DNA from: Candidatus Kuenenia stuttgartensis
GTDB lineage: Bacteria; Planctomycetota; UBA11346
Direction of reading: 5' to 3'
NCBI GenBank assembly: GCA_945876185.1
Contig: CAMCMZ010000010.1
Location: 4,614 to 68,613 of the forward strand
DNA length: 64,000 bases
Part shown: one piece after another, positions 2,163 through 25,690 of the stretch
Layout: every line of letters begins with the position of its first letter
How positions within the stretch are numbered: the stretch's first letter is position 1
Translations under genes and position numbers: made by a program
The notes under the pieces: model-generated
What the model was told of the DNA's origin: nothing
Databases searched by the model: none
Seen by the model: only the letters and a program-made list of their open reading frames with translations

Positions 2163-5100
2163 ATGGTTCTTCCACGCGCAGCAGCCTGGACTAGCCTGCC
2201 GCCCACCATGGTTCCCGGTCGGATCAGGCTGCTCGCCGCGTTGGCCGCGCTCGTTTTCGCTGCCTTGGCGGCCCAGGCCGGCGAGGCCGTGAATCTCGTT
2301 CCGCCTGGGGTGCAGCGCCTCGCCTTGACTGAAGGCGAACGCGCCTGGCTGGCAGCGCATCCCGCCATCACCATCGCACTCGATGACGGCAATCCGCCCC
2401 TCAATTTCCGCCAGGCCGACGGCGGTTATGCCGGGATCAGCGTCGACTACCTGCGGCTGATCACCGCCAAGGTGGGCCTGGAACTGCACCTGGAAGGCTC
2501 GACCTGGAGCGAAGCCCTGGCCAAGGCGATGGCGCACCAGGTCGACGGCCTGATGTCGGCCTCCGACAAGGCGGAGCGTCGGGTCGCGTTGGGTTTCACC
2601 GCCGCCTATTGCGTGACCCCGGTGGCGATGGTCACCGCGCAGGACTTCCCCCAGGTGGAAAACCTGGCCGGCTTCGCGCGGCGGCGGGTGGCGGTGGTCG
2701 CCGGGACGATCCGCATCCCGCTCCTCAAGGACCACTGCCCCACGGCGACGCTGGTCGAGGTCGCAACTGCCCAGGACGGCATCAAGGCCCTGACCGAGGG
2801 CGGGGCCGAGGCGTTCTTCGACGATCTGCCGGTGGTGCAGAACTTCATCGACCACCACATGATTTCGCGTCTACGTGTCGCGCTGCTGTATTTCATTCCT
2901 GAAGTTGGGGCGCAGCGCGTCGCGGTGCGCAACGACCGGCCGGAACTGCTGGCCATCCTCGACAAGGCGATCGCGGCGATCAGCCCGGATGAGCATCGCG
3001 CCATCCAGGACCGTTGGCTGCGCCTGGCCGACAAGGCCGTCGTGCAGCGGGATCTCGGCCTGACGGTGGGCGAACGCGCCTGGCTGACGGCGCATCCAGT
3101 GGTCCGGGTCGGCTGCGATCCCGCCTGGCCGCCGTTGGAATGGGTCGATGACCAGGGCCGGCGCCAGGGCATTTCGGCCGACTATCTCAAGCGGCTGGAA
3201 GGCATGCTGGGCATCCGCTTCGAGATCGATGCCGCCACCGCCTGGCCGGACATCATGCGCCGGGCCGCGGCGGGCCAGATCGACGTGGTCGCCTGCATGG
3301 GGGACACCCCGGAACGCCGCCGGCAGTTCGCCTTTACCAAAGCCTATGTCACCTTCCCGATCTCGATCTTCGCCCGCAACGAGGTCGGCTACGTGGCCGG
3401 GATCGAGGCCCTGGCGGGGCGGCGCGTCGTGGTGGTCCGCGGCTACGTCGAGGATGAGCAGCTCCGCATCGGTCACCCCGAACTGACGCTGATCCAGGTG
3501 TCCACCGTCGAAGAAGCCCTGGCACGTCTGCGCCGGGGCGAGGCCGATGCCTACGTTGGCGGCCTGCTGCCCACCGCCTTCCAGATCCAGAAGCAGGGTG
3601 AGTTCGCCATCCACGTGGTCGGCGAGACGCCCTACGTCTACCGCCAGGCGATGGCGGTTCGCCCGGACTGGCCGGAACTGGCGGCGATTCTGGACAAGGC
3701 CCTGGCCGCGATCCCGCCCGAGGACCGCACCGCGATGGAACGCAAATGGGTGAGCCTGCGGTTCGAGCACGGCTTCGATGCCGCGTTGCTGTGGCAGCTC
3801 GGCATCCCGCTGGCGGTCGTGCTGGCGTTGTTCGTCTTCTGGAACCGCCGGCTGCGGGCCGAAGTGCGTCAGCGCACCCGGGTCGAGGCCGAACTGGTGG
3901 CCTACCGCGATCGGTTGGAGGACCTCGTCCAGGCCCGCACCGCGGATCTTCAGGCGGCGCTCAGCGACCTGCGCCGCCTCGCCGCCGCCGTCGACCAGGC
4001 GGCCGAGGGCGTGGTCATCGCCGATCCCGACGGGCGCATCGCGTTCGTCAATCCGGCCTTCACCCGCCTCACCGGCCGGGATGCGTCGGCGGCGATGCGC
4101 CTCGATCTCGCCAGCATCGGCCTGCCCTGGAACGATTCCGCCCTGCGCCAGGGGCGCTGGCAGGGCCGCATCGCCCTGCGCCGGCCGGACGGGTCCGGGG
4201 TCGACATCGAAGCCACGGTATCGGCCGTCACCGCCGGCGGCAGCCTGGTCAACCTGGTCTCGATCCTGCGCGACATCACGGTGGAGCGCGGTATCGAACT
4301 CCGCCTGGCCCAGTCCCAGAAGCTGGAGGCGATCGGCACCCTGGCCGGCGGCATTGCCCACGATTTCAACAACATCCTCACCATGATCATCGGTTCGGCG
4401 GAACTGGCCGCCCGGGCGAACGCCGACGAAGCACGCCGGGTCAAGAGCCTGGAGACCATCCTGACCGCCTCTGATCGTGCCCGCGACCTGGTGCGCCAGA
4501 TTCTGACCTTCGCGCGCGGCCGGCCGGTCAAGCGACGGCCGGTCGAACTGGCGGCGGTGGTGCACGCCGGGCTCAAGCTCATCCGCGCCTCGCTGCCGGC
4601 CTCGATCGAGATCAGCACCGACCTCGCCGCGCCGATCCAGATTCTCGGTGATCCCACCCAGATCGACCAGATCCTCATGAACCTGTGCACCAACGCCGGC
4701 CTGGCCATGCCCGACGGTGGCCGGTTGGACATCGGCCTCGCCCGGGTCGAACTCGACGCCGGGGACGCCGCCCTCCAGGTCGGCTTGAATCCCGGCCCGC
4801 ACGCCCGCCTGACCGTGCGCGACACCGGGGTCGGCATGACGCCCGAGATCCAGGCGCGCATCTTCGAGCCGTTCTTCACCACCCGCAGCAACGGCAGCGG
4901 TACCGGCAAGGGCACCGGCCTCGGCCTCGCCGTGGTGCACGGCATTGTGCGCGATTACGGCGGCGCCATTTCCGTCGCGAGCGAACCGGGACGCGGCACC
5001 ACCTTCACCATCCACCTGCCCCTTGCCGACCACGCGGCTGAACCTGCCCCCGTCGAGGCGGCGAGCCTGCCGCGCGGAAGCGAACGCATCCTCTTCGTCG

Positions 5101-14447: not shown

Positions 14448-16466
14448 ATGGAAGAGCAGCGCCTGCTGCAGATGGCCCAGATCAAGGGCTGGATCTCGCC
14501 CGAACAGCTCGCGCGGGCCCAGGCCGAGCAACAGGCTCTGGCCGACCGTGGCGTCGAGCACAGCCTGTGGTTCCTGGTCCAGGACCTGGGCTTCGTCACC
14601 GACGATCAGGCGCGCGAACTGCGCAAGCACACCTCGTCGACGCGCATCCGCGCGCTGGAGGTCGACGGCTACATCATCCAGCGCCGGTTGGGCAGTGGCG
14701 GCATGGGTGATGTCTTCCGCGCCCGGCATCGCGATGGCCGGCAGGCCGCGGTGAAGCTGCTGTCGGCGCGCTTCGCCCACCACGAGGAGCACCGCCGCCG
14801 CTTCGCACGCGAAGCGCGGGCGATGCTCGGCCTGCACCATGAGCACATCGTCGAGGCGTACGCCACCGGCGAGATCGATGGCACGCCCTGGCTCGCGATG
14901 GAGATAGTCGAAGGCCCGTCGCTGAAGCAGTGGCTGATCGATCACGGTCCGCTGCCGCGCGACCTCGTCCTGGTCATGCTGCGCCAGATCGCCTCCGCGC
15001 TCGCGCTCGCGGCCCATGACAGCGTCCTGCACCGCGACGTGAAGCCGGCGAACATCATCCTTGGTCAGGCGCGCATCGGGAGGGACGAACCTTTCGCGGC
15101 CAAACTGTGCGACTTCGGCCTCGCCAAGGTAGGTCAGCGGCTTGGCGAGGACACCCCGGGCCAGCTCACCGGCAGCGGCCTGGCGCTCGGCACCCCGCAC
15201 TACATGAGCCCGGAACAGGCCTCGGGTGATCACGACCTCGATCAGCGCTGCGACATCTACGGCCTCGCCGCCACCGCCTACCACGCGTTGCTCGGGCAGA
15301 CCATGCACAGCGGCAAGAGTTCGGCCGTGATCATGTACAAGCAGGTCACCGAAGGCGCCGACCTGGGGCTGCTCCGGCGCGCCGGCATCGATGAACCGCT
15401 GGTCGTGATTCTCGGCGGGATGCTGGAGATCGATCGCGCCCGGCGCACCGGCTCCTGGGAGAAGGTACTGGACGCGTTCAACCGGCTGGATCCACGGCCT
15501 GGCACCCCCGTGGCCTGGCCGGAGGAACATTTGCCCCTCACCCTGAAGTCCGACCGCTTCGCCATCCCCACCGCACGCCCGGTCTCGGTGCCAGCCGAAC
15601 CGGCTCCGGCGCCATTCACCAATTCCATCCCGCACGCGGCCCCCGTGCTGACGGATCCATCAGCGGTGGAGGCGAAAACCTCAGCCGCAGCCTTGCTCGC
15701 GCCGTTCACGGATGCTGCGGTGGCACGCTCCCGGGCGCGCCCAGGTCTGCTTTGGGCGGTGTTGCTCGCGCTCGCGGCCAGCGTGCTCATCGTCGCGATC
15801 GGGATGCTGGTCTTGGCCGTGCGTCGGCCTGCCGTGGCGGCGACGCCGCAGACGCTGACGGCCATCCTCAACGAGCCTCGACGGGATGCGGTTGTCCTGC
15901 TCGCGCCGGGCCGCTACCCCGGGCCGGTGCGACTCGGCGTCGCCCAGAGTGGGGTGATGCTGCGCGCCACCGGACCAGGGGTGTACATCGACGGTGGCGC
16001 GCAGCCGGCGCTGCGCTGCGAACCCGGTTTGGTCCGGGCGGTGGTCGACGGGGTCGAACTGGCCAGCACCGGCAGCGCGGTCGAGGTCCTCGCCGGCTCC
16101 GGTCTCGCGCTGAACCGGGTGGTGGTGCGCGGCGGCGATCCCGCCATCGAGGTGTCGGGTGGAACCGTGGATCTGTCCGGGGTGCGGGTCATTGCCACCG
16201 GCACCGCCGTGCGCTGCAATCTGGCGGAACGAGTCAGCCTGATCGATGTCGATCTCAACGGATCCGTCGGCCTGGCCATCGACCACAGCGACCGGATCTC
16301 CCTCGATCGCGTTTCCATCCACGCCACCAGAACAGGAATCTCCTGGGATGGCCCCCGCCCGACGACGGCATGGAGCGACCTGTCCGTGCGCGCGCCGCAA
16401 CCGGTCCTTGGGCTGAGTGTCATCGCCACCGACGGCAGCGGTCCGCGACCGGGTTCGCTGCCCTGA
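14448..16466 (+). CDS. Ser/Thr protein kinase with a GspE/MshE-N-like N-terminal helical module, one TM and a C-terminal right-handed beta-helix (PbH1-like) domain
   Basis: Kinase motifs GSGGMGDVFRA, HRDVKPANIIL, DFGLAK, GTPHYMSPEQ. TM segment LLWAVLLALAASVLIVAIGMLVLAV. The C-terminus has repetitive beta-helix-like segments (VVRGGDPAIEVSGGTVDLSGVRVIATGTAVRCN...). Confidence 0.85.
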   Translation: MEEQRLLQMAQIKGWISPEQLARAQAEQQALADRGVEHSLWFLVQDLGFVTDDQARELRKHTSSTRIRALEVDGYIIQRRLGSGGMGDVFRARHRDGRQAAVKLLSARFAHHEEHRRRFAREARAMLGLHHEHIVEAYATGEIDGTPWLAMEIVEGPSLKQWLIDHGPLPRDLVLVMLRQIASALALAAHDSVLHRDVKPANIILGQARIGRDEPFAAKLCDFGLAKVGQRLGEDTPGQLTGSGLALGTPHYMSPEQASGDHDLDQRCDIYGLAATAYHALLGQTMHSGKSSAVIMYKQVTEGADLGLLRRAGIDEPLVVILGGMLEIDRARRTGSWEKVLDAFNRLDPRPGTPVAWPEEHLPLTLKSDRFAIPTARPVSVPAEPAPAPFTNSIPHAAPVLTDPSAVEAKTSAAALLAPFTDAAVARSRARPGLLWAVLLALAASVLIVAIGMLVLAVRRPAVAATPQTLTAILNEPRRDAVVLLAPGRYPGPVRLGVAQSGVMLRATGPGVYIDGGAQPALRCEPGLVRAVVDGVELASTGSAVEVLAGSGLALNRVVVRGGDPAIEVSGGTVDLSGVRVIATGTAVRCNLAERVSLIDVDLNGSVGLAIDHSDRISLDRVSIHATRTGISWDGPRPTTAWSDLSVRAPQPVLGLSVIATDGSGPRPGSLP

Positions 16467-17497: not shown

Positions 17498-18376
17498 TCA
17501 GGCCGGTACCAGCACCCGCACCGTGCCGCCGTGCGCAATCGTCCAGGTGCCGGCTGCCACCAGGAATGGTTCCCCATCGACCTGCATCGGCATCGGCCGG
17601 GCGAGCGTGAAGCGGAAGGATTCCCCTGGCGGCAGCGCCCGCGCCGAGCTCATCCCGGCGATCACCAGGCCAAAGCCCGGTGGACCAGGCAGAGCGAACG
17701 GGTCGCAGCGCCGGTCGTCATCGCGGATCGATGGCGCAAGTCGGCAACCCGAGGCGTAGCTCGCGATATTGGCCCAGACCAGGCAGCGCGTGCCGGGCGG
17801 CGGCGGCGGGTCGACGACCTGCTCCAGCAGTTCTCCGGTCGACAGCAGGCCGGCCAGGGTGTAGGCGGCCTTGTTCACCAGACCGCCCGCAAGCAATCGG
17901 GGCCAGGCGGAGCGCCAGGCGTGGAACCGGCCCGCCACGGCGGCGTCGTAGCCGAGGCCAAGGTAGGCGTACCAGTCACGGGTGAGCCCAGGTCCGGAAA
18001 TGGTCCAGCGATCGCAGGAGCGGATCGATGCGGATGCGAGGTGGAGCAGCCGGCTTTCAAGTCGGAGTTGAATATTCCAGCCCAGGTGCCGGGCTAAGTC
18101 GTTACCGGTGCCCAGGGGCAGGATGCCCACGGCCGGCGGCAGGCGCGCGTCGGCCCGCCAGGCAGCAGATAGGCAGGCGCTGACCGTGCCGTCACCGCCA
18201 CAGGCCACCAGCCGAGCGCCAGCGTCGCGGCAACCCCGGGCAATGACCTCCAGATCGTCGCCCGGCAGCAGATGCACGGCGTCGGGACAGAGCGTGGAGA
18301 GTTCCCGGGCCAGGCGGGTGCCAGTGCGTCCACCACTTGCCGGATTGATCACGAAGCGCAGCGCGGGCATCGGCAC
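17498..18376 (-). CDS. Diacylglycerol/lipid kinase family protein (YegS/BmrU-like)
   Basis: DAGK catalytic-domain motifs: FVINPASGG, VACGGDGTV, LPLGTGNDLARHLGW. Confidence 0.8.
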   Translation of the reverse strand: MPMPALRFVINPASGGRTGTRLARELSTLCPDAVHLLPGDDLEVIARGCRDAGARLVACGGDGTVSACLSAAWRADARLPPAVGILPLGTGNDLARHLGWNIQLRLESRLLHLASASIRSCDRWTISGPGLTRDWYAYLGLGYDAAVAGRFHAWRSAWPRLLAGGLVNKAAYTLAGLLSTGELLEQVVDPPPPPGTRCLVWANIASYASGCRLAPSIRDDDRRCDPFALPGPPGFGLVIAGMSSARALPPGESFRFTLARPMPMQVDGEPFLVAAGTWTIAHGGTVRVLVPA

Positions 18377-18573: not shown

Positions 18574-19467
18574 GTGGAATCAGAGATCGAGCGCCTGCGC
18601 AAGAAAGTCGAGAATTTCCCCTCGGCTTCGAGCTATAACCGGCTCGCCGAGCTGTCTCGCCTGGCGGGCGATGACGGCGACGCCGAGCGGGTGTGCCGTA
18701 AGTGCATCAAGGAATTTCCCCGCAACGGTCAGGCCTACGTCATCCTCGCGGAGATCCGCCTGGCCCAAAACAAGAAACCGGATGCGGTGCAACTGCTGCA
18801 GATCGCGATCGAGCGCGATCCCCGTTCGTACACCGCGCACCGCCTGATGGCGGATCTTCTCATCGCTGATGGCGCGAAGGATCAGGCCCTGGCCCACCTG
18901 CGTCAGATCGTCACCTTCAAACCGAACGATCCGGCGGTCAGCGCGCGGATCGTGGAACTGGAAGGCAAGCCGGGCAAACCGGCGGACACCGCTCCCACCG
19001 TGGTGGGTGGCGCACCCGTGGCGCGGCGCGCCATCCCTACTGCGGGGGCGACTCCGGCCACCCCGGCCCAGGCGGTCGCCAGCACCCAACCGTCAGCCCT
19101 GCCGGCGCGCCCGCTGCCGGCGACCCGTGTCTCAGCCCTTGACGCCCTCTGCGCCGAATCCGGCGTCAGCGGCGCCTTGGTGGCCGATGGCAGCGGACGG
19201 ACCGTGGTCGCGCGCAAGCTGCCGGCCGCGCAAGAGGAACTCCTTGCGGCGCTCGCCAGCGAAGTGGTCCGCAATGGCGCCGCGGCCCTGAGCACGGTCG
19301 GCCAGGACCGGCTGTCCACCCTCACCGTGGTCGGGGCCCAGGGCCAGATGATGGCGTTCAGCCGCGATCAGCGCCTGACCGTGATCGTGCTCGCCTCCAC
19401 CCAGGTCCGCCCGGCGATGCTCGAGTTGAGGGCACGCCAGGTTCTCATCGATCTTGGAGCCGGGTGA
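18574..19467 (+). CDS. TPR repeat protein fused to a C-terminal Roadblock/LC7 domain
   Basis: GTG start with an upstream AAGGA. The N-terminal ~135 aa are TPR-like (GQAYVILAEIRLAQNKKPDAVQLLQIAIERDPRSYTAHRLMADLL). A Pro/Ala-rich linker follows. The C-terminal ~110 aa are Roadblock-like (GVSGALVADGSGRTVVARKL...LSTLTVVGAQGQMMAFSRDQRLTVIVLAS). Confidence 0.75.
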   Translation: MESEIERLRKKVENFPSASSYNRLAELSRLAGDDGDAERVCRKCIKEFPRNGQAYVILAEIRLAQNKKPDAVQLLQIAIERDPRSYTAHRLMADLLIADGAKDQALAHLRQIVTFKPNDPAVSARIVELEGKPGKPADTAPTVVGGAPVARRAIPTAGATPATPAQAVASTQPSALPARPLPATRVSALDALCAESGVSGALVADGSGRTVVARKLPAAQEELLAALASEVVRNGAAALSTVGQDRLSTLTVVGAQGQMMAFSRDQRLTVIVLASTQVRPAMLELRARQVLIDLGAG

Positions 19468-19814
19468 TGGACGAACTCCTGCAGCAGCTCAACCACGTGC
19501 GCGGCATCGGCGGCTCGATGCTGTTATCAGCCGAGGGTCTGCCCATTGCCGCAGCCTTGCGCGAAGGCACCGACGAGAACGCCCTCGCCGCCGCCGCTGG
19601 CGTCCTCATGGAGTCCGCAGCGCGCCTGGGTCGGCATCTCAGCCTGGGCGGGATCGGTTCGCTCTCGACCGCCGGCGATCAGGGCGCCCTGCTGATCCTC
19701 GCGGCCGGCAAATCCTGGCTCGCGGTGATCATCGACCCCTCGGCCAACCTCGCCCTGCTCCAGCTTGAGGCGCGTCCCTTCGTCGAACGCATCAGCCAGC
19801 GCCTGACCCTGTAA
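19464..19814 (+). CDS. Roadblock/LC7 domain protein (MglC-like paralog)
   Basis: Roadblock pattern: VRGIGGSMLLSAEGLPIAAAL...AAAAGVLMESAARLG...LLILAAGKSWLAVIIDPSANLAL. The start overlaps the stop of the upstream gene (GTGATG at 19464-19469). Confidence 0.8.
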   Translation: MMDELLQQLNHVRGIGGSMLLSAEGLPIAAALREGTDENALAAAAGVLMESAARLGRHLSLGGIGSLSTAGDQGALLILAAGKSWLAVIIDPSANLALLQLEARPFVERISQRLTL

Positions 19815-19857
19815 GGTCCGGCCGCCGGCAGGTGCGGCTTCTTTTCGCCATCCTCCT

Positions 19858-19886
19858 TTCGTCAACATCATTCGATACCATACGAT
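19858..19886 (+). promoter_or_regulatory. Possible sigma-70-type promoter upstream of mglA (TTCGTC-17 nt-TACGAT)
   Basis: TTCGTC at 19858-19863, a 17-nt spacer, then TACGAT at 19881-19886. GGAGA lies ~12 nt before the ATG at 19910. This rests on a pattern match only. Confidence 0.25.
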
Positions 19887-19909
19887 ACCAAGAGCGGAGA
19901 ACGTGAACC

Positions 19910-21283
19910 ATGGTGCAGATCAATTTCGGTCAGCGCGAGGTCAGCTGCAAGGTGGTGTTCTATGGCCCCGGCATGTCGGGGAAGACCACGAATCTTGAGA
20001 TCATCCACAAGAAGGCGCCCAAAGATGCCGTGGGCGAGATGGTGTCGATCGCTACCGAGACCGATCGTACGCTGTACTTCGACTTCCTGCCGCTCGACCT
20101 CGGTCAGGTCGCAGGCATGCGCACCAAGTTCGCGCTCTACACCGTGCCGGGTCAGATCTACTACAACGCGACCCGCAAGCTGGTGCTGCAGAGCGTCGAT
20201 GGCGTCATCTTCGTCGCCGATTCGAACCCGGACAAGATGAGCGAAAACCTGGAATCCCTCCAGAACCTGCGCGACAACCTGAACGAGATGGGCCTCACCA
20301 TCGACGATCAGAGCAGTCAGGGCTTCGTGCCGGTGGTACTGCAATACAACAAGCGCGACCTGCCCAACGCGTTGCCGGTGGCGGACATTGATGCGCAGAT
20401 CAACCCGATGAAGGCCCCGACCTTCGAGGCCTGCGCCCGCGACGGCAAGGGCGTGTTCGCAACCCTGAAGGAGATCTCGCGCCTGGTGATCGAGAAGCTC
20501 AACCGCGAGCACGCCCCCGCCGCCAATCGCCGGCGTACCGCGACCTCGATGACCCCGGTGGGGCAATCAGCGCTGCCGCTCCCGTCGGGCGCACCGCCCT
20601 CGCCGCCGCCAAGCACCACGACCGGATCCAGGCCGTCAGTGATGGCGGTCGCCCCGCAGTCTGGCGGCACCCCGGCCGGCGGACAGCCCACCGTGGCCAA
20701 TACACCGCGTCCGCCGCCGGCCGCGATCCGTCCGCCGCCGCCCCGTCCGGCACCACCGCCACCCACGGCCAGCCCGACCATGACCCCGAATCGGCCGATG
20801 CCGGTGACCTCGCCGACGCCGTCACGGGCGATGCCGAGTCCGCCGCCGCCACGCCCCTATCAGCCGCCCGTGCCGGCGGCCACCCCGGCGCCGACTCCTG
20901 CGGATGAACTCAGTCCGCGCGAGAAGCATCTCAGCAAGCCCAAGCCGCCGACCATCACCAGCGCGGCGAAAGCCCCGACGCCGGATCTCGGCCACACCGA
21001 GCCGAACCTGAAGCGCTACCAGCAGCAGTCGAACGGTGGCGGCGCGCTCAAGACGCTCGCGATGATCTCGCTGGTGCTGATCGCCATCCTCGTCGTCTTC
21101 ACGATCCTGATCATCTTCGTCCCCTTCGTGCGCAAAGCGGTGCGGCCGATCTTCCCACCCGGCATCCAGCGCATGCTGATGGATGAGAACGAGAAGTCCG
21201 CCGCCCTGCCCCGGGCGGATCGCGTCCCGGTGGCGATCGTGCTGACCCGTGCCGGTGACGATGGGGTCGGCCATGGTCAGTGA
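19910..21283 (+). CDS. mglA: MglA-family Ras-like small GTPase with a long Pro-rich C-terminal extension and a C-terminal TM anchor
   Basis: The first ~195 aa are collinear with Myxococcus/Thermus MglA: P-loop GPGMSGKTTN, switch I ETDRTLYFDFLPL, switch II YTVPGQIYYN, NKRD box QYNKRDL. A ~180-aa Pro-rich region follows. The hydrophobic helix is ALKTLAMISLVLIAILVVFTILIIFVPFV (about nt 21044-21130), followed by a 50-aa tail. Confidence 0.9.
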   Translation: MVQINFGQREVSCKVVFYGPGMSGKTTNLEIIHKKAPKDAVGEMVSIATETDRTLYFDFLPLDLGQVAGMRTKFALYTVPGQIYYNATRKLVLQSVDGVIFVADSNPDKMSENLESLQNLRDNLNEMGLTIDDQSSQGFVPVVLQYNKRDLPNALPVADIDAQINPMKAPTFEACARDGKGVFATLKEISRLVIEKLNREHAPAANRRRTATSMTPVGQSALPLPSGAPPSPPPSTTTGSRPSVMAVAPQSGGTPAGGQPTVANTPRPPPAAIRPPPPRPAPPPPTASPTMTPNRPMPVTSPTPSRAMPSPPPPRPYQPPVPAATPAPTPADELSPREKHLSKPKPPTITSAAKAPTPDLGHTEPNLKRYQQQSNGGGALKTLAMISLVLIAILVVFTILIIFVPFVRKAVRPIFPPGIQRMLMDENEKSAALPRADRVPVAIVLTRAGDDGVGHGQ

Positions 21284-21794
21284 GAACGAGGCCCTGCGCC
21301 TGCGTCGGCTGGTCTTCTACGCCAATGACATCGAGAAGTTCAACCAGGCGCTGCTCGCCTTCGTACGCAAATCTAACGCCCAGGCCGTGCTGCTGGTCGA
21401 CAAGGACGGCCACCTTGTCGCCCGCCAGGGCTTCAAGCAGTCCGGCCACGACGGATCGTCGCTCGCGGCCTTGGTAGCGGGCAGCTTCGCCAGCACGCAA
21501 CAGGTCGCCAAGATCCTTGGTGAACCTGAGTTCCGCACCCTGTCGCATCAGGGTCAGACCCAAAGCATCAACGTCATCCTGGTCGGCGACCGTACCCTCC
21601 AGATCGCGGTGTTCTCGTCCCAGATCAAGCCGGGCATGATCCAGGTGATGTGCGCTGAATTGGCCAAGCAGATCGAGGCCCTCCTGGTCGAAGCCGGCAA
21701 GCGCATCCCGCTCGACGAGGGCGCCCAGCCGCTCGGCAAGGAATTCAACCAGGAAATGAAGAACCAGCTCGATTCCCTTTTCGGCAACCTCTGA
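21273..21794 (+). CDS. mglB: MglB-like Roadblock/LC7 protein (candidate MglA GAP)
   Basis: Collinear with Myxococcus MglB: AVLLVDKDGHLVARQG...SSLAALVAGSFASTQQVAKILGEPEF...INVILVGDRTLQIAVF, with a C-terminal acidic helix ending LDSLFGNL. The ATG at 21273 overlaps the mglA 3' end by 11 nt. Alternative starts exist at 21249 and 21261. Confidence 0.8.
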   Translation: MVSENEALRLRRLVFYANDIEKFNQALLAFVRKSNAQAVLLVDKDGHLVARQGFKQSGHDGSSLAALVAGSFASTQQVAKILGEPEFRTLSHQGQTQSINVILVGDRTLQIAVFSSQIKPGMIQVMCAELAKQIEALLVEAGKRIPLDEGAQPLGKEFNQEMKNQLDSLFGNL

Positions 21795-21890
21795 TTCCAA
21801 GATCCGGCCCGTCCTCCATCCGCCCATCCGACCGGGCCGCGCCTGCCCGCACTGGCGCTTGCGGCAATCCGGCATTACCTTTTCCCACGC

Positions 21891-24800
21891 ATGGGTTTCC
21901 AAGGCCAACTCAGTTCCGTCAACCTCTCGGACATCCTCCAGACGCTGCAGGTCAATCACCAGACCGGCGCCCTGGTGGTGGGTGGTGGCGATGATGCGGT
22001 GCGGGTCTGGTTCGACCAGGGCCAGATCGCCGCGTGCTATGCCCCCATCGTCGACAATCTGCCGTATTTGCTGCGGGCCCTGCTGCAAAAGGGCCTGATC
22101 CCGCCCGAACAGGCGCGCGACTTCGAGCGCCGCAACCGCGAGACCGGACAGCCGCTGCGTGAACTGCTGGAGGCCAGCGGCACGATCGGCATCGTCGAAC
22201 TCGACGAGGTGTGCGCCTGGTGCATCGAGGAGATCGTCTGCCCGATCTTTGAGCGCACCGAGGGCGAGTTCGCCTTCACCGACGGTGAACCGCCGCCGGA
22301 ACTGCTCGCTGCGACCAGCGTCTGGATGGGTGCCCTGCGCCTGCAGACCACCCAGCTCCTGCTAGAGGCCACCCGGCGCAAGGATGAATGGCAGCGCATC
22401 CGCGAAGTCATCACCGATCCCGCGGCGCTGCTGGTGGTCGACAACGACGGCCGCGCCAACCTGCGCAACCTCCAGACCGACCCCGACATGCTCAAGGTGC
22501 TGCGCTACCTCGACGGTCGCCACACCATCGACTCCATCGCCGAAGCGGTCGGGGTGACCCGCTTCGACTGTTTCACCATCGCAGCCCAGCTCGTCCTCGC
22601 CGGCGTCGCGCGCACCTGCACCGCGCAGGAGGTGGTCGAGGACGCGGTCCGGCTCAAGACCGATGGAGACTGCGTCAAGGCTGGTGAACTGCTGGAAAAC
22701 GTGCTGCGCACGGCGAAGGTCCCTGAGGTCCTGCGTCCGCTCGCCGAGATCAGCATCCAGATCAACCAGATCCCGCGCGCGGTCGAGCTCTACCTCGACC
22801 TCATCCAGCTCAGTCAGGATCAGGGCGACCTGGAAGCCGCGTTGACCGATCTCAACACTGTGATCGGGCTGTCACCGGACGACCCGGATCTCCACTTCGA
22901 ACGCGCTCAGGTCCTGGCAGACCTCGGCCACATCGAGCAGGCCGCCGCCGGCTACGGCAACGCGGCGCAGGCGTACCTCGCCACCAAAGACGTGAACAAG
23001 GCGATCGACTCCTGCCACCGCGCCAAGAACCTGCTGCCGCGCGCGCCGGAACCGCACCGCTACCTGGCCCGCGCCTACCTGCTGGAAGGCCAGACTGAAA
23101 ACGCCGCCGTCGAATACAAGGCGCTCTGGCATGCGTTGCTCACCATCACCAGTCCGCGCAAGGCCTTGGAAGAGCTGCGCGTCATCCTCGACAGCGACTG
23201 CAAATATCCGGCGATCAAGGATCAGGTGCTGTCGCACGCCCAGAACAGCGAAGCGGTCAAGACCAGCCGAGCCACGCGCCTATTGGTTTACGTCGTGCTC
23301 ATCCTGCTGCTCATCGTCGGCGCGTCGATCGGCTGGCTGACCTTCAGCAAGCTCAAAACCCAGCGCGACGGCCGCGAAGCGCTGCATGCCTTGGACGACC
23401 GTTTTGCCCGCGAACGCGAATCCTTGCCGCCGCCGCATGGGCTCATCCTCGATGACATCAGCCAGGTGCAATTTCGTTATCGTTCCTCTACCGAAGTGAC
23501 CCACGAGGCGGCGACCCTGACCGAGCAGGTGCGCAGCGATTGGGAAGCACGATCCAAGGCGCGCATCGATGAGGCCCTCGCCCTCGGCCGCAACGGCAGG
23601 TTTGAAGCAGCGCGCAATCTGCTCCTGCGAACCCAGACCGAATTCCGCGGCACCGATGCCGCCGCCAAGGTGGACAGCCTGGTGCAGGACATCCAGGGCA
23701 GCGCCATCAAGGTCGAGGTCGTCGCCAAGGTCGAGGAAGCCAAACGCAAATGGCAGGACCTGGACTGGGACGGCGCGGTGCGTGATCTCAAGCCCATCTT
23801 GGATCGCTCCGATCTGCCGCCCGACCTGCGCAGCGAATATCAGGGTTTGTCCTACCAGTGGACGGCAGCCCTGGCGAGCAGCGATGAACTGGGCAAACGG
23901 GCGGACCGCATCGCGGATCGCGGCGATCGCCGGGCCGCGATCGCCGCCTTCCGCCGCGCAGCATCCGGCCAGGGCGAGGCCGGTTGTGCTCGCGCCCGAT
24001 CGCGCCTTGCAGGATTGGAGCTGGATGACGCCAAGGACATCGCCACCCGGGCCCGGGATGCAGCCCAGCGCGGCGATGACGCCGGGGCCTTCGCCGCCGT
24101 TGAGCTGCTCCAGAACCTGGCGCGGGATTCGATCGCGATCTCGGTGCGCGACTTTGTCGCCAATCTCGAACTGCCGTTCACCCTGCGCGTCGATCACCAG
24201 GCGACCGTGCTGACCCTCCACCGCGCCGGCACGGCGACCACGGTGCGCCGACCGCAGGACGCAGTCGGTGCGTGGTCGCAGATGGTCCCGTGCCGCCTGT
24301 CAGAGGAGATCAGCGGCAGCGCCAGCCGGACCGGCTTCACCACCCTGCCATTCACCATTTCCATCAAGGACAAGCGCACCCAGATCGCGATCAGCCTGCG
24401 TCGCGGGCCGCGCTGGAGCGTGCCCCTGGCAGGTGCCGCCACGTTCGGGCCGGTGTCCGCCGACCGCTTCGCCGTCCTTGGCACCAGCCGGGCCACCTTC
24501 GAGATCGTCGACGCGGCCAGTGGCAACGTGCGGGCCGTGCCCTTCCCGGATTGCGTCACCGAATTCCGCCTGCCCGCGGCGATGCACCAGGGCCGGGCCT
24601 ACCTGCTGCTTGACGATCGCGTCGCCGCGATCGATGTCGCCACCCGCAATCTGCTCTGGACCTGGCCCCCCGAACGCTCCGCCATCCGTCAGAACTTCAA
24701 ACCGGTCGGTGGCATCGGCGCCGGCGACCATGAGCTGATCCAGGGCCAGATCCTGCTCTATCTCGGTTCCGGCCGATCCCAGTTGACCATCCTCGCCGTC

Positions 24801-25487
24801 GATGGGACCAGCGTCGTGGCGTATCCGCGGCTGCTCCTGCCCAACGACCTCAGCGGCCAGCCGACCGTCGGCCGCCACGGTCATTTCAGTGTCCTCACCG
24901 TTCCGGCCGGCAATCAACTCGTCGGGTTCGACGTCACCGCCATCACCGAGAGCACCAAGCCGCGCCAGTTGTTCAGCATCCGCACCCGAGGCGACCTGGA
25001 AGGCGTGCCGCAACGGGTGCGCGTGAAGGGCCGGCCGGCCTTGCTGCTGTGTGATATCAGCGGGCAATTGGTGGCGGTCGACACCGACCCCGAAGCCGAT
25101 GACAATCGCCGCGTGCTTGGGTCCTGGGCGGTCGATGGCGTCCGCCCCAGCACTCCGGTCATCCTGCCCGGTGGCAAGGTCGCGGTGACGGCGACCTCGG
25201 ATGGCCGCGTGGTCGCGATCGATCTGGAACGTCCGGGCCATATCCTGTGGCGCCATCCGCAGACCGGCAATCTGGCCCAGGTTCCCGGCCAGGTCGGGGT
25301 TGGCCGCAACACCATCTATGTTGCCGATGTCGCTGGCATCCTGCACGCCATCGACCCCGCCACCGGATCCGGCCTGTGGCGAGCGGATCTCGGCAGTCCG
25401 GCTTGCGCCAGCGTCTGGGCTGCGGACGGACGCATCCTGGTGCCGGTGCGGTCGGGGGCGTTGCTGTGTTTTGATGAGGGTGATTGA
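21891..25487 (+). CDS. Large DUF4388 (PATAN-like) - TPR - TM - coiled coil - PQQ-like beta-propeller protein
   Basis: The N-terminus GQLSSVNLSDILQTLQVNHQTGALVV matches the DUF4388/PatA-N-terminal pattern. Several TPR-like repeats occupy aa ~290-420. The single TM is RLLVYVVLILLLIVGASIGWLTF. The C-terminal ~430 aa carry repetitive beta-propeller/PQQ-like blades (GRVVAIDLERPGHILW, GILHAIDPATGSGLW, GALLCFD). Confidence 0.8.
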   Translation: MGFQGQLSSVNLSDILQTLQVNHQTGALVVGGGDDAVRVWFDQGQIAACYAPIVDNLPYLLRALLQKGLIPPEQARDFERRNRETGQPLRELLEASGTIGIVELDEVCAWCIEEIVCPIFERTEGEFAFTDGEPPPELLAATSVWMGALRLQTTQLLLEATRRKDEWQRIREVITDPAALLVVDNDGRANLRNLQTDPDMLKVLRYLDGRHTIDSIAEAVGVTRFDCFTIAAQLVLAGVARTCTAQEVVEDAVRLKTDGDCVKAGELLENVLRTAKVPEVLRPLAEISIQINQIPRAVELYLDLIQLSQDQGDLEAALTDLNTVIGLSPDDPDLHFERAQVLADLGHIEQAAAGYGNAAQAYLATKDVNKAIDSCHRAKNLLPRAPEPHRYLARAYLLEGQTENAAVEYKALWHALLTITSPRKALEELRVILDSDCKYPAIKDQVLSHAQNSEAVKTSRATRLLVYVVLILLLIVGASIGWLTFSKLKTQRDGREALHALDDRFARERESLPPPHGLILDDISQVQFRYRSSTEVTHEAATLTEQVRSDWEARSKARIDEALALGRNGRFEAARNLLLRTQTEFRGTDAAAKVDSLVQDIQGSAIKVEVVAKVEEAKRKWQDLDWDGAVRDLKPILDRSDLPPDLRSEYQGLSYQWTAALASSDELGKRADRIADRGDRRAAIAAFRRAASGQGEAGCARARSRLAGLELDDAKDIATRARDAAQRGDDAGAFAAVELLQNLARDSIAISVRDFVANLELPFTLRVDHQATVLTLHRAGTATTVRRPQDAVGAWSQMVPCRLSEEISGSASRTGFTTLPFTISIKDKRTQIAISLRRGPRWSVPLAGAATFGPVSADRFAVLGTSRATFEIVDAASGNVRAVPFPDCVTEFRLPAAMHQGRAYLLLDDRVAAIDVATRNLLWTWPPERSAIRQNFKPVGGIGAGDHELIQGQILLYLGSGRSQLTILAVDGTSVVAYPRLLLPNDLSGQPTVGRHGHFSVLTVPAGNQLVGFDVTAITESTKPRQLFSIRTRGDLEGVPQRVRVKGRPALLLCDISGQLVAVDTDPEADDNRRVLGSWAVDGVRPSTPVILPGGKVAVTATSDGRVVAIDLERPGHILWRHPQTGNLAQVPGQVGVGRNTIYVADVAGILHAIDPATGSGLWRADLGSPACASVWAADGRILVPVRSGALLCFDEGD

Positions 25488-25634: not shown

Positions 25635-25663
25635 GAATGAGGTGTCCTAGTCGTAACCGGATG

Positions 25664-25690
25664 GGCGGGGGCGCTGCTTGCCCGCTTTTT
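25664..25690 (+). terminator. Intrinsic (Rho-independent) terminator downstream of the MglA cluster
   Basis: GCGGG-ggcgctgcttg-CCCGC, immediately followed by TTTTT. It lies between convergent genes ending at 25487 (+) and 25746 (-). Confidence 0.6.

Follow-up and report, generated by a model that had tools for sequence, protein, structure and literature searches.

A planctomycete MglA-type GTPase with a long proline-rich linker and a predicted transmembrane helix near its C terminus

MglA is the paradigm of spatial control by a bacterial small GTPase. The canonical protein, as described from Myxococcus xanthus and Thermus thermophilus, is a soluble single domain of ~195 amino acids (aa) that exchanges between the cell poles via the cytosol, and the published mechanism needs such a soluble, pole-exchanging protein. 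Group-1 MglA proteins are marked by a G3 motif that reads TVPGQ instead of DxxGQ and by an intrinsic arginine in switch I (G2) (PMC4316618). Here we describe an MglA of a different build, encoded at positions 19910-21283 of a 64,000-nucleotide (nt) stretch of DNA deposited as Candidatus Kuenenia stuttgartensis (the window; positions 4,614 to 68,613 of contig CAMCMZ010000010.1, assembly GCA_945876185.1). The protein, which we call MglA-TM, carries 257 residues beyond the canonical MglA, comprising a long proline-rich linker, a predicted transmembrane helix and a short tail.

The 2014 survey by Wuichet and Sogaard-Andersen selected small GTPases by a length window of 150-240 aa, and holds 39 MglA-clade sequences of more than 240 aa (PMC4316618). 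Planctomycetes and anchored forms are not mentioned in that paper, and no planctomycete genus is named in its supplementary text. The G domain of MglA-TM belongs to a known family; of its layout, a helix-anchored MglA, we found no description in the literature, the coverage of subscription journals being thin and absence not proven.

An MglA G domain joined to a predicted membrane helix

The mglA gene is one unbroken forward-strand frame of 457 aa with no internal stop codon. The sequence GGAG lies ~11 nt 5' of its ATG, and its stop codon is at 21281-21283. Its parts are as follows.

19910-20509 (+): MglA G domain, aa 1-200, with P-loop, switch I with the intrinsic Arg53, TVPGQ with Gln82, and NKRD (phmmer against the PDB, residue invariance, AlphaFold2)
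20507-20914 (+): disordered Pro-rich linker, aa 200-335, with RRRT at 207-210 (composition, AlphaFold2, ratio of non-synonymous to synonymous substitution rates, dN/dS)
20915-21040 (+): juxtamembrane motif, predicted to be cytoplasmic, aa 336-377 (alignment of 112 C-terminal regions, substitutions relative to the homologue at locus L047)
21041-21130 (+): predicted transmembrane helix, aa 378-407 (Kyte-Doolittle hydrophobicity, AlphaFold2, homologues)
21131-21283 (+): post-helix tail, aa 408-457 plus the stop codon, with a conserved start, RKAVRPIFPPGIQRML, and then a variable Pro/Ala-rich end; overlaps mglB (clade alignment, AlphaFold2)

In phmmer searches of the PDB, residues 2-199 match the solved structures of MglA from T. 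thermophilus (3t12, E = 5.8e-72) and M. xanthus (6h17/5ymx, E ~7e-65), the next-best family being Arf at E = 2.7e-5. The P-loop GPGMSGKTTN occupies aa 19-28, switch I (DRTLYFDFLP) aa 52-61, with R53 inside DRTLYF, switch II (PGQIYYN) aa 80-86, with YTVPGQ at aa 77-82, and NKRD aa 147-150. Residues K25, T26, R53, T54, T78, V79, P80, G81, Q82, N147, K148 and D150 are invariant among 58 homologues, and with its catalytic residues thus conserved the GTPase switch looks catalytically intact. An AlphaFold2 model computed with the alignment of these 58 sequences folds aa ~1-200 as an alpha/beta domain. The similarity of the G domain to MglA, the TVPGQ motif together with the switch-I Arg, and the genomic coupling to MglB agree with group 1, and on these sequence criteria MglA-TM contains a group-1 MglA G domain. 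It departs from the group in size and solubility, being a protein of 457 aa with a transmembrane helix and not a small soluble single domain.

Many homologues bear the automatic JGI name 'signal recognition particle receptor subunit beta' (SR-beta), a label that arises because Pfam and NCBIfam provide only weak, generic small-GTPase models for this protein. We rejected an SR-beta identity: the anchor of MglA-TM is C-terminal and not N-terminal, its Pfam Arf match is weak (1.1e-5, 25.4 bits), and its G domain is that of MglA.

Beyond the G domain, residues 200-375 (176 aa) comprise 29% Pro, 12% Ala, 11% Thr and 9% Ser, with a nearly invariant RRRT directly after the G domain. AlphaFold2 gives this linker a low pLDDT (predicted local distance difference test) and leaves aa 213-377 nearly structureless, placing short helices only at 209-212 and 336-341. 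The end of the linker is of another character. In the clade of the window's protein it contains the juxtamembrane motif KHLxKAKPPAL...LGxTDPNLKRYQ...GGG (KHLxKxKPP and LGxTxPNLKRYQ in a looser consensus), of which H340, L341, K343, P346, T363 and P365 show a conservation of 90% or more among the homologues. The hydrophobic segment that follows has a best 19-residue Kyte-Doolittle mean of 3.42 and is modelled as a helix at aa 378-403 with a pLDDT of ~90. Directly after it stands a second clade motif, FVPAVRxxLPxGxQRxL (looser form FVPxVRxxLPxGxQRxL), and the model has two short helices in this region, at 405-414 and 417-429. The post-helix part measures 50-54 residues in MglA-TM and 17-160 aa in its clade, its distal portion being variable and rich in Pro and Ala.

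The original prediction had described an MglA orthologue tethered to the membrane through a long flexible spacer, with a G domain ending near aa 195 followed, in an uninterrupted frame, by a Pro-rich tract, a hydrophobic helix and a 50-aa tail overlapping mglB. All of these elements, and the G-domain motifs it listed, are present. The end of the G domain agrees with the match of residues 2-199 to solved structures, and the 29-residue hydrophobic segment placed at nt 21044-21130 is exact, corresponding to aa 379-407 (ALKTL...VPFV). The term 'tail-anchored' needs qualification. As defined here, a tail-anchored protein has a single helix at its very C terminus with no more than ~30 residues after it, a cytosolic N-terminal domain and no signal peptide. 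MglA-TM does have a single predicted helix near its C terminus, and a hydrophobicity scan of the protein found no N-terminal hydrophobic segment or signal peptide; 50 residues nevertheless follow the helix, more than this definition allows. Because the protein has one helix only, lacks a signal peptide and carries an N-terminal domain that depends on GTP, its post-helix tail is probably located outside the cytoplasm, that is, in the periplasm. We infer that MglA-TM is a single-pass protein of N-in/C-out topology rather than a strictly tail-anchored one.

Conservation of the extension and its spread in Planctomycetota

A search for homologues of near length gave 7329 matches, and the layout was read in the best 120 of these. 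Nearly all of the 120 are 385-520 aa long, and 112, from independent assemblies, share the layout of a Pro-rich linker followed by a strongly hydrophobic segment; close orthologues thus carry the extension and are not ~195-aa proteins with unrelated sequence downstream. Their linkers span roughly 100-260 aa (measured range 116-256 aa) with 10-42% Pro. The closest relatives of MglA-TM all come from uncultured Planctomycetota metagenome-assembled genomes (MAGs); the automatic 'Kuenenia' and 'Brocadiaceae' labels on some of these MAGs were not trusted. Three close homologues of 285-335 aa that have no helix (P0101, P0110 and P0114) lie on contigs of 83-358 kb, and may be either real soluble variants or frameshifted genes.

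Selection was measured between the window and L047, which are 88% identical. The dN/dS ratio is 0.04 for the G domain, 0.14 for the linker (aa 200-335) and 0.15 for the whole extension, which is under purifying selection. The juxtamembrane motif shows no non-synonymous and 12 synonymous differences, and the post-helix motif one non-synonymous and two synonymous differences.

These data bear on whether the long open reading frame (ORF) is real. A frameshift or assembly error could have fused mglA to a small membrane-protein gene, or the frame could run on by chance in GC-rich DNA. Long spurious ORFs are typical of high-GC genomes, and several on other frames overlap this locus; the source, moreover, is a MAG in 123 contigs (3.8 Mb, 82% complete). 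An artefact would nonetheless have to recur as the identical continuous frame and layout in more than 100 independent assemblies. It would also have to yield a dN/dS of 0.15 across the extension, C-terminal motifs that are conserved as protein sequence, and a codon-position GC pattern in the helix and tail that resembles that of the G domain. We regard its probability as negligible, and given the shared layout and the dN/dS value, frameshift, mis-assembly and chance ORF are excluded for practical purposes.

The distribution of the anchored form was surveyed in an even sample of 151 Planctomycetota genomes, with a threshold of E <= 1e-40 for the MglA G domain. The domain was found in 93 of the 151, the best match usually lying within an open frame of 300-530 aa. 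Best matches were read from 40 genomes spread over the sampled families, and 36 of these genes were complete (about 36 families, one best match each). A hydrophobic segment ends 33 of the 36, which is why we count the anchored form as the norm: as far as the sequences tell, anchored MglA is usual in Planctomycetota and not peculiar to this genome, and the structural reading of the original prediction extends across the phylum. In 31 of the 33 anchored genes only 2-18 residues follow the segment, making these proteins true tail anchors by the definition above. The window's clade departs from most families: conserved motifs flank its helix on either side, and the tail measures 17-160 aa. When linkers were compared across the phylum sample no motif common to the phylum was found, composition alone being conserved.

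Elsewhere in the sample, the MglA genes of L025, L036 and L044 (genomes G020, G007 and G008, respectively) encode a proline- or charge-rich tail of 60-135 aa with no hydrophobic segment. Genome G008, a single contig of 9.3 Mb, holds four MglA-like genes of differing lengths. In the window's own genome the sole other MglA-like G domain, with 38% identity, lies on another contig (C77; L002:977-3043), in one frame with a Ser/Thr protein kinase domain to which it is fused. This ORF, of at least 689 aa, runs off the end of the locus (the open frame being 1130 aa) and has a signal peptidase II gene just 5' of it; genomes of the same family have similar frames of 1149 and 1445 aa.

The surrounding gene cassette

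MglA-TM is encoded by the third of five co-directional genes that span 18574-25487. The other features of this cassette are listed here.

18574-19467 (+): TPR-Roadblock protein, 297 aa, with N-terminal TPRs, a Pro/Ala-rich linker and a C-terminal Roadblock/LC7 domain (Pfam TPR_19, 2e-11; Robl_LC7, 5.5e-6 at aa 191-264)
19464-19814 (+): small Roadblock/LC7 protein, 116 aa, its start overlapping the stop of the TPR-Roadblock gene by 4 nt (Pfam Robl_LC7, 1.5e-12)
19820-19839 (+): hairpin of 6 pairs, 5 of them G-C, followed by TCTTTTC, in the 95-nt gap before mglA (consensus scan alone)
21249-21794 (+): MglB, by homology a Roadblock-type GTPase-activating protein (GAP), 173-181 aa, with possible starts at GTG 21249, ATG 21261 or ATG 21273 (phmmer against the PDB)
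21891-25487 (+): PATAN(DUF4388)-TPR-transmembrane-beta-propeller protein, 1198 aa (Pfam DUF4388, 8.4e-22; TPRs; PQQ_2, 3.6e-14)

MglB matches the MglB structures of M. xanthus (6izw_B, 2.3e-17) and T. thermophilus (1j3w, 1.9e-11), and scores 69.5 bits with NCBIfam NF052242, below the cut-off of 200. Its overlap with mglA is 11-35 nt, depending on which mglB start is used. Among the related loci long enough to include the position, all but L079 have mglB 3' of mglA. The best solved relatives of the 116-aa Roadblock protein are Roadblock/LC7 proteins (7f8m and 7yh1) and not MglB. The hairpin between this gene and mglA, a consensus match, is possibly a weak terminator or attenuator; by reducing read-through it could adjust how much of the two upstream Roadblock proteins is made relative to MglA and MglB.

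The PATAN protein has one hydrophobic segment (458-488), with a helix at aa ~462-484, and is predicted to place ~460 aa in the cytoplasm and ~710 aa outside it. It has ~115 homologues, with a length of roughly 1197 aa. A complex prediction between aa 1-205 of MglA-TM with GTP and Mg and aa 1-455 of the PATAN protein, run with alignments, gave an ipSAE of 0.00 in two runs (mark 0.32), a result that speaks neither for nor against binding.

The order of the first four cassette genes is the same at 39 of 43 related loci. Of these loci, 27 are long enough to show what follows mglB, and in 16 it is directly the PATAN gene. At L006, which encodes a more distant, true tail-anchored relative, the same parts occur in a rearranged order. 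In the window the cassette is flanked upstream by a divergent diacylglycerol-kinase-like gene (17498-18376, minus strand) and at its other end by a convergent phosphoesterase gene, with a terminator-like hairpin at 25662-25684. A gene for a 672-aa Ser/Thr protein kinase (14448-16466, plus strand) lies ~2 kb upstream of the cassette.

Two related loci have neighbours of other kinds. At L003:13695-17380, where the full five-gene cassette is present, the next genes encode a protein with a prepilin-type N-methylation motif and large unannotated proteins, which weakly suggests a connection with pilus-like or pseudopilin systems. The distant anchored MglA of L005:8001-9422 (P0113, 473 aa) has neither mglB nor a PATAN gene adjacent; an ECF (extracytoplasmic function) sigma-factor gene comes next, followed by unannotated genes up to a type II secretion/type IV pilus-type ATPase gene (T2SSE).

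A membrane-confined switch and its known counterparts

In the reading that we favour, with a probability of roughly 0.7, MglA-TM and MglB form a membrane-confined switch that acts on envelope-associated partners. MglA-TM would be a permanent integral membrane protein, its G domain in the cytoplasm and joined to the single transmembrane helix by a leash of ~175 residues; in the window's clade, a short conserved stretch followed by a variable Pro/Ala-rich tail would protrude beyond the membrane. The GTP-bound form would be the 'on' state. By analogy with Myxococcus and Thermus, a dimer of the co-translated Roadblock protein MglB would turn it off through Arg53 and Gln82 of MglA-TM itself. Because such a switch could not leave the membrane, its output would be limited to the layer near the membrane that the leash can span; for 175 Pro-rich disordered residues we roughly estimate a mean reach of ~10 nm, and one of tens of nm when fully extended. 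Where MglA-TM sits would then depend on local regulators and on capture or lateral diffusion within the membrane rather than on cytosolic exchange. The likeliest regulators or adaptors would be the two extra Roadblock proteins, one of them with TPRs, and the likeliest effector or scaffold the single-pass PATAN-TPR-propeller protein; the process controlled may be polarity, pili or envelope organisation. The original prediction had concluded that an anchored MglA could not shuttle from pole to pole and must work in a different way, and this is a reasonable inference, to which we would add that the protein may diffuse laterally within the membrane or be released by proteolysis.

Several observations weigh against a permanently anchored switch of this kind. 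The helix is missing from ~7% of the close homologues and from three of the 36 complete phylum-level genes (those of L025, L036 and L044), and the anchor is therefore dispensable in some lineages. No short soluble MglA was found in the window's genome, which favours the anchored reading, but this genome is 82% complete and a second, soluble copy may have been missed. At 11 of the 27 loci the PATAN gene is not in the neighbourhood, leaving it adjacent in ~60%. The charges that flank the helix are ambiguous as to orientation, with two Lys/Arg residues before it and three after it within 15 residues, so the N-in orientation rests on the need of the G domain for cytoplasmic GTP and on the absence of a signal peptide.

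The forms without a helix are also what favours a conditional anchor, in which MglA-TM would be a membrane precursor whose G domain is freed by cleavage in the linker or helix, the resulting soluble MglA of ~200 aa working as in Myxococcus. The long-tailed proteins of L025, L036 and L044, or the short forms, indicate that a soluble MglA is viable. The linkers, however, share no motif resembling a protease site across the phylum, and the cassette contains no protease gene. If the anchor were discarded, its retention in 33 of 36 families, despite linkers of variable length and sequence, would be hard to explain. We consider release by cleavage improbable.

The conservation of motifs on both faces of the helix suggests a further role for the anchor, that of docking to a partner in the membrane. 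This could go further, the helix and its flanks serving as the docking or signal-relay element of a trans-envelope complex, with the tail sensing or holding a periplasmic partner, such as the external part of the PATAN-propeller protein, and so coupling the GTP cycle of MglA-TM to events outside. The motifs flanking the helix are far more conserved than the linker, as their non-synonymous and synonymous counts against L047 (0 versus 12 before the helix, 1 versus 2 after it) illustrate, and the cassette often holds that second single-pass protein with its large external propeller. In the PATAN protein, however, the transmembrane segment lacks sequence conservation, and the PATAN gene is absent from the neighbourhood at the 11 loci noted above. 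Most planctomycete families, moreover, have no conserved flanks and only 2-18 residues after the helix, so a relay would be a clade-specific addition. We hold it as a tentative refinement for the window's clade, more doubtful than the membrane-confined switch itself.

Planctomycete cells have elaborate membrane invaginations and bud from a pole. A broader conjecture, which we think unlikely but worth stating, is that Planctomycetota independently invented a eukaryote-style anchored small GTPase, in which a hypervariable leash links the G domain to a C-terminal anchor, and combined it with a multi-Roadblock platform recalling Ragulator/Rag. Such a module might mark or organise membrane domains such as poles, buds, pilus or crateriform sites, or invaginations, and the window's clade might have turned the anchor into a transmembrane dock for a periplasmic propeller protein.

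A phylum in which MglA is normally an integral membrane protein would imply that the same switch can work under another spatial regime, that of lateral capture and local regulation. It would also mean that size-based definitions of 'small GTPase' miss such proteins. The cassette, with its three Roadblock proteins and its PATAN-TPR-propeller protein, offers concrete hypotheses on polarity, pili or envelope organisation, which are informative because planctomycetes, to our knowledge, are without many of the canonical bacterial polarity and division systems.

The nearest described relatives are the MglA/MglB pairs of M. xanthus and T. thermophilus. MglA-TM shares with them a closely related G domain with TVPGQ, the switch-I Arg, the catalytic Gln and NKRD, and a true mglB directly 3' that, from the gene overlap, is predicted to be translationally coupled. 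In contrast to the canonical protein, it has the leash, the juxtamembrane motifs, the helix and the putative external tail, and its locus adds the two upstream Roadblock partners to the MglA/MglB module.

Eukaryotic Ras, Rab and Rho proteins consist of a G domain, a hypervariable region and a C-terminal prenyl or palmitoyl anchor. The anchored MglA layout is a natural parallel to them, combining a G domain with a flexible, poorly conserved spacer and a C-terminal anchor. MglA-TM belongs to the MglA lineage, however; its spacer is 4-5 times longer, and its anchor is a protein helix and not a lipid, and so would not be extractable by a chaperone like GDP dissociation inhibitor (GDI). SR-beta and Miro resemble it in another respect, as both have a small-GTPase fold that is fixed to the membrane by its own transmembrane helix. 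The anchor of SR-beta is N-terminal and the protein pairs with SR-alpha, whereas the anchor of MglA-TM is C-terminal; Miro does have a C-terminal tail anchor, but unlike MglA-TM it contains two GTPase domains and EF hands. The resemblance to Ras/Rab, SR-beta and Miro is one of design alone, with no homology beyond the common fold.

PATAN genes near MglA and MglB have been noted in passing, occasionally for group-1 and group-5 MglA (PMC4316618). The link of PATAN to MglB and MglA genes is credited there to Makarova et al. 2006, and in M. xanthus PATAN proteins co-occur with SgmX (PMC11580455). The present cassette is alike in having a PATAN (DUF4388) gene beside MglA and MglB. It differs in that the PATAN domain heads a 1198-aa protein, predicted to be single-pass with its TPRs inside the cell and its beta-propeller outside, and in that the neighbouring GTPase appears to be anchored itself.

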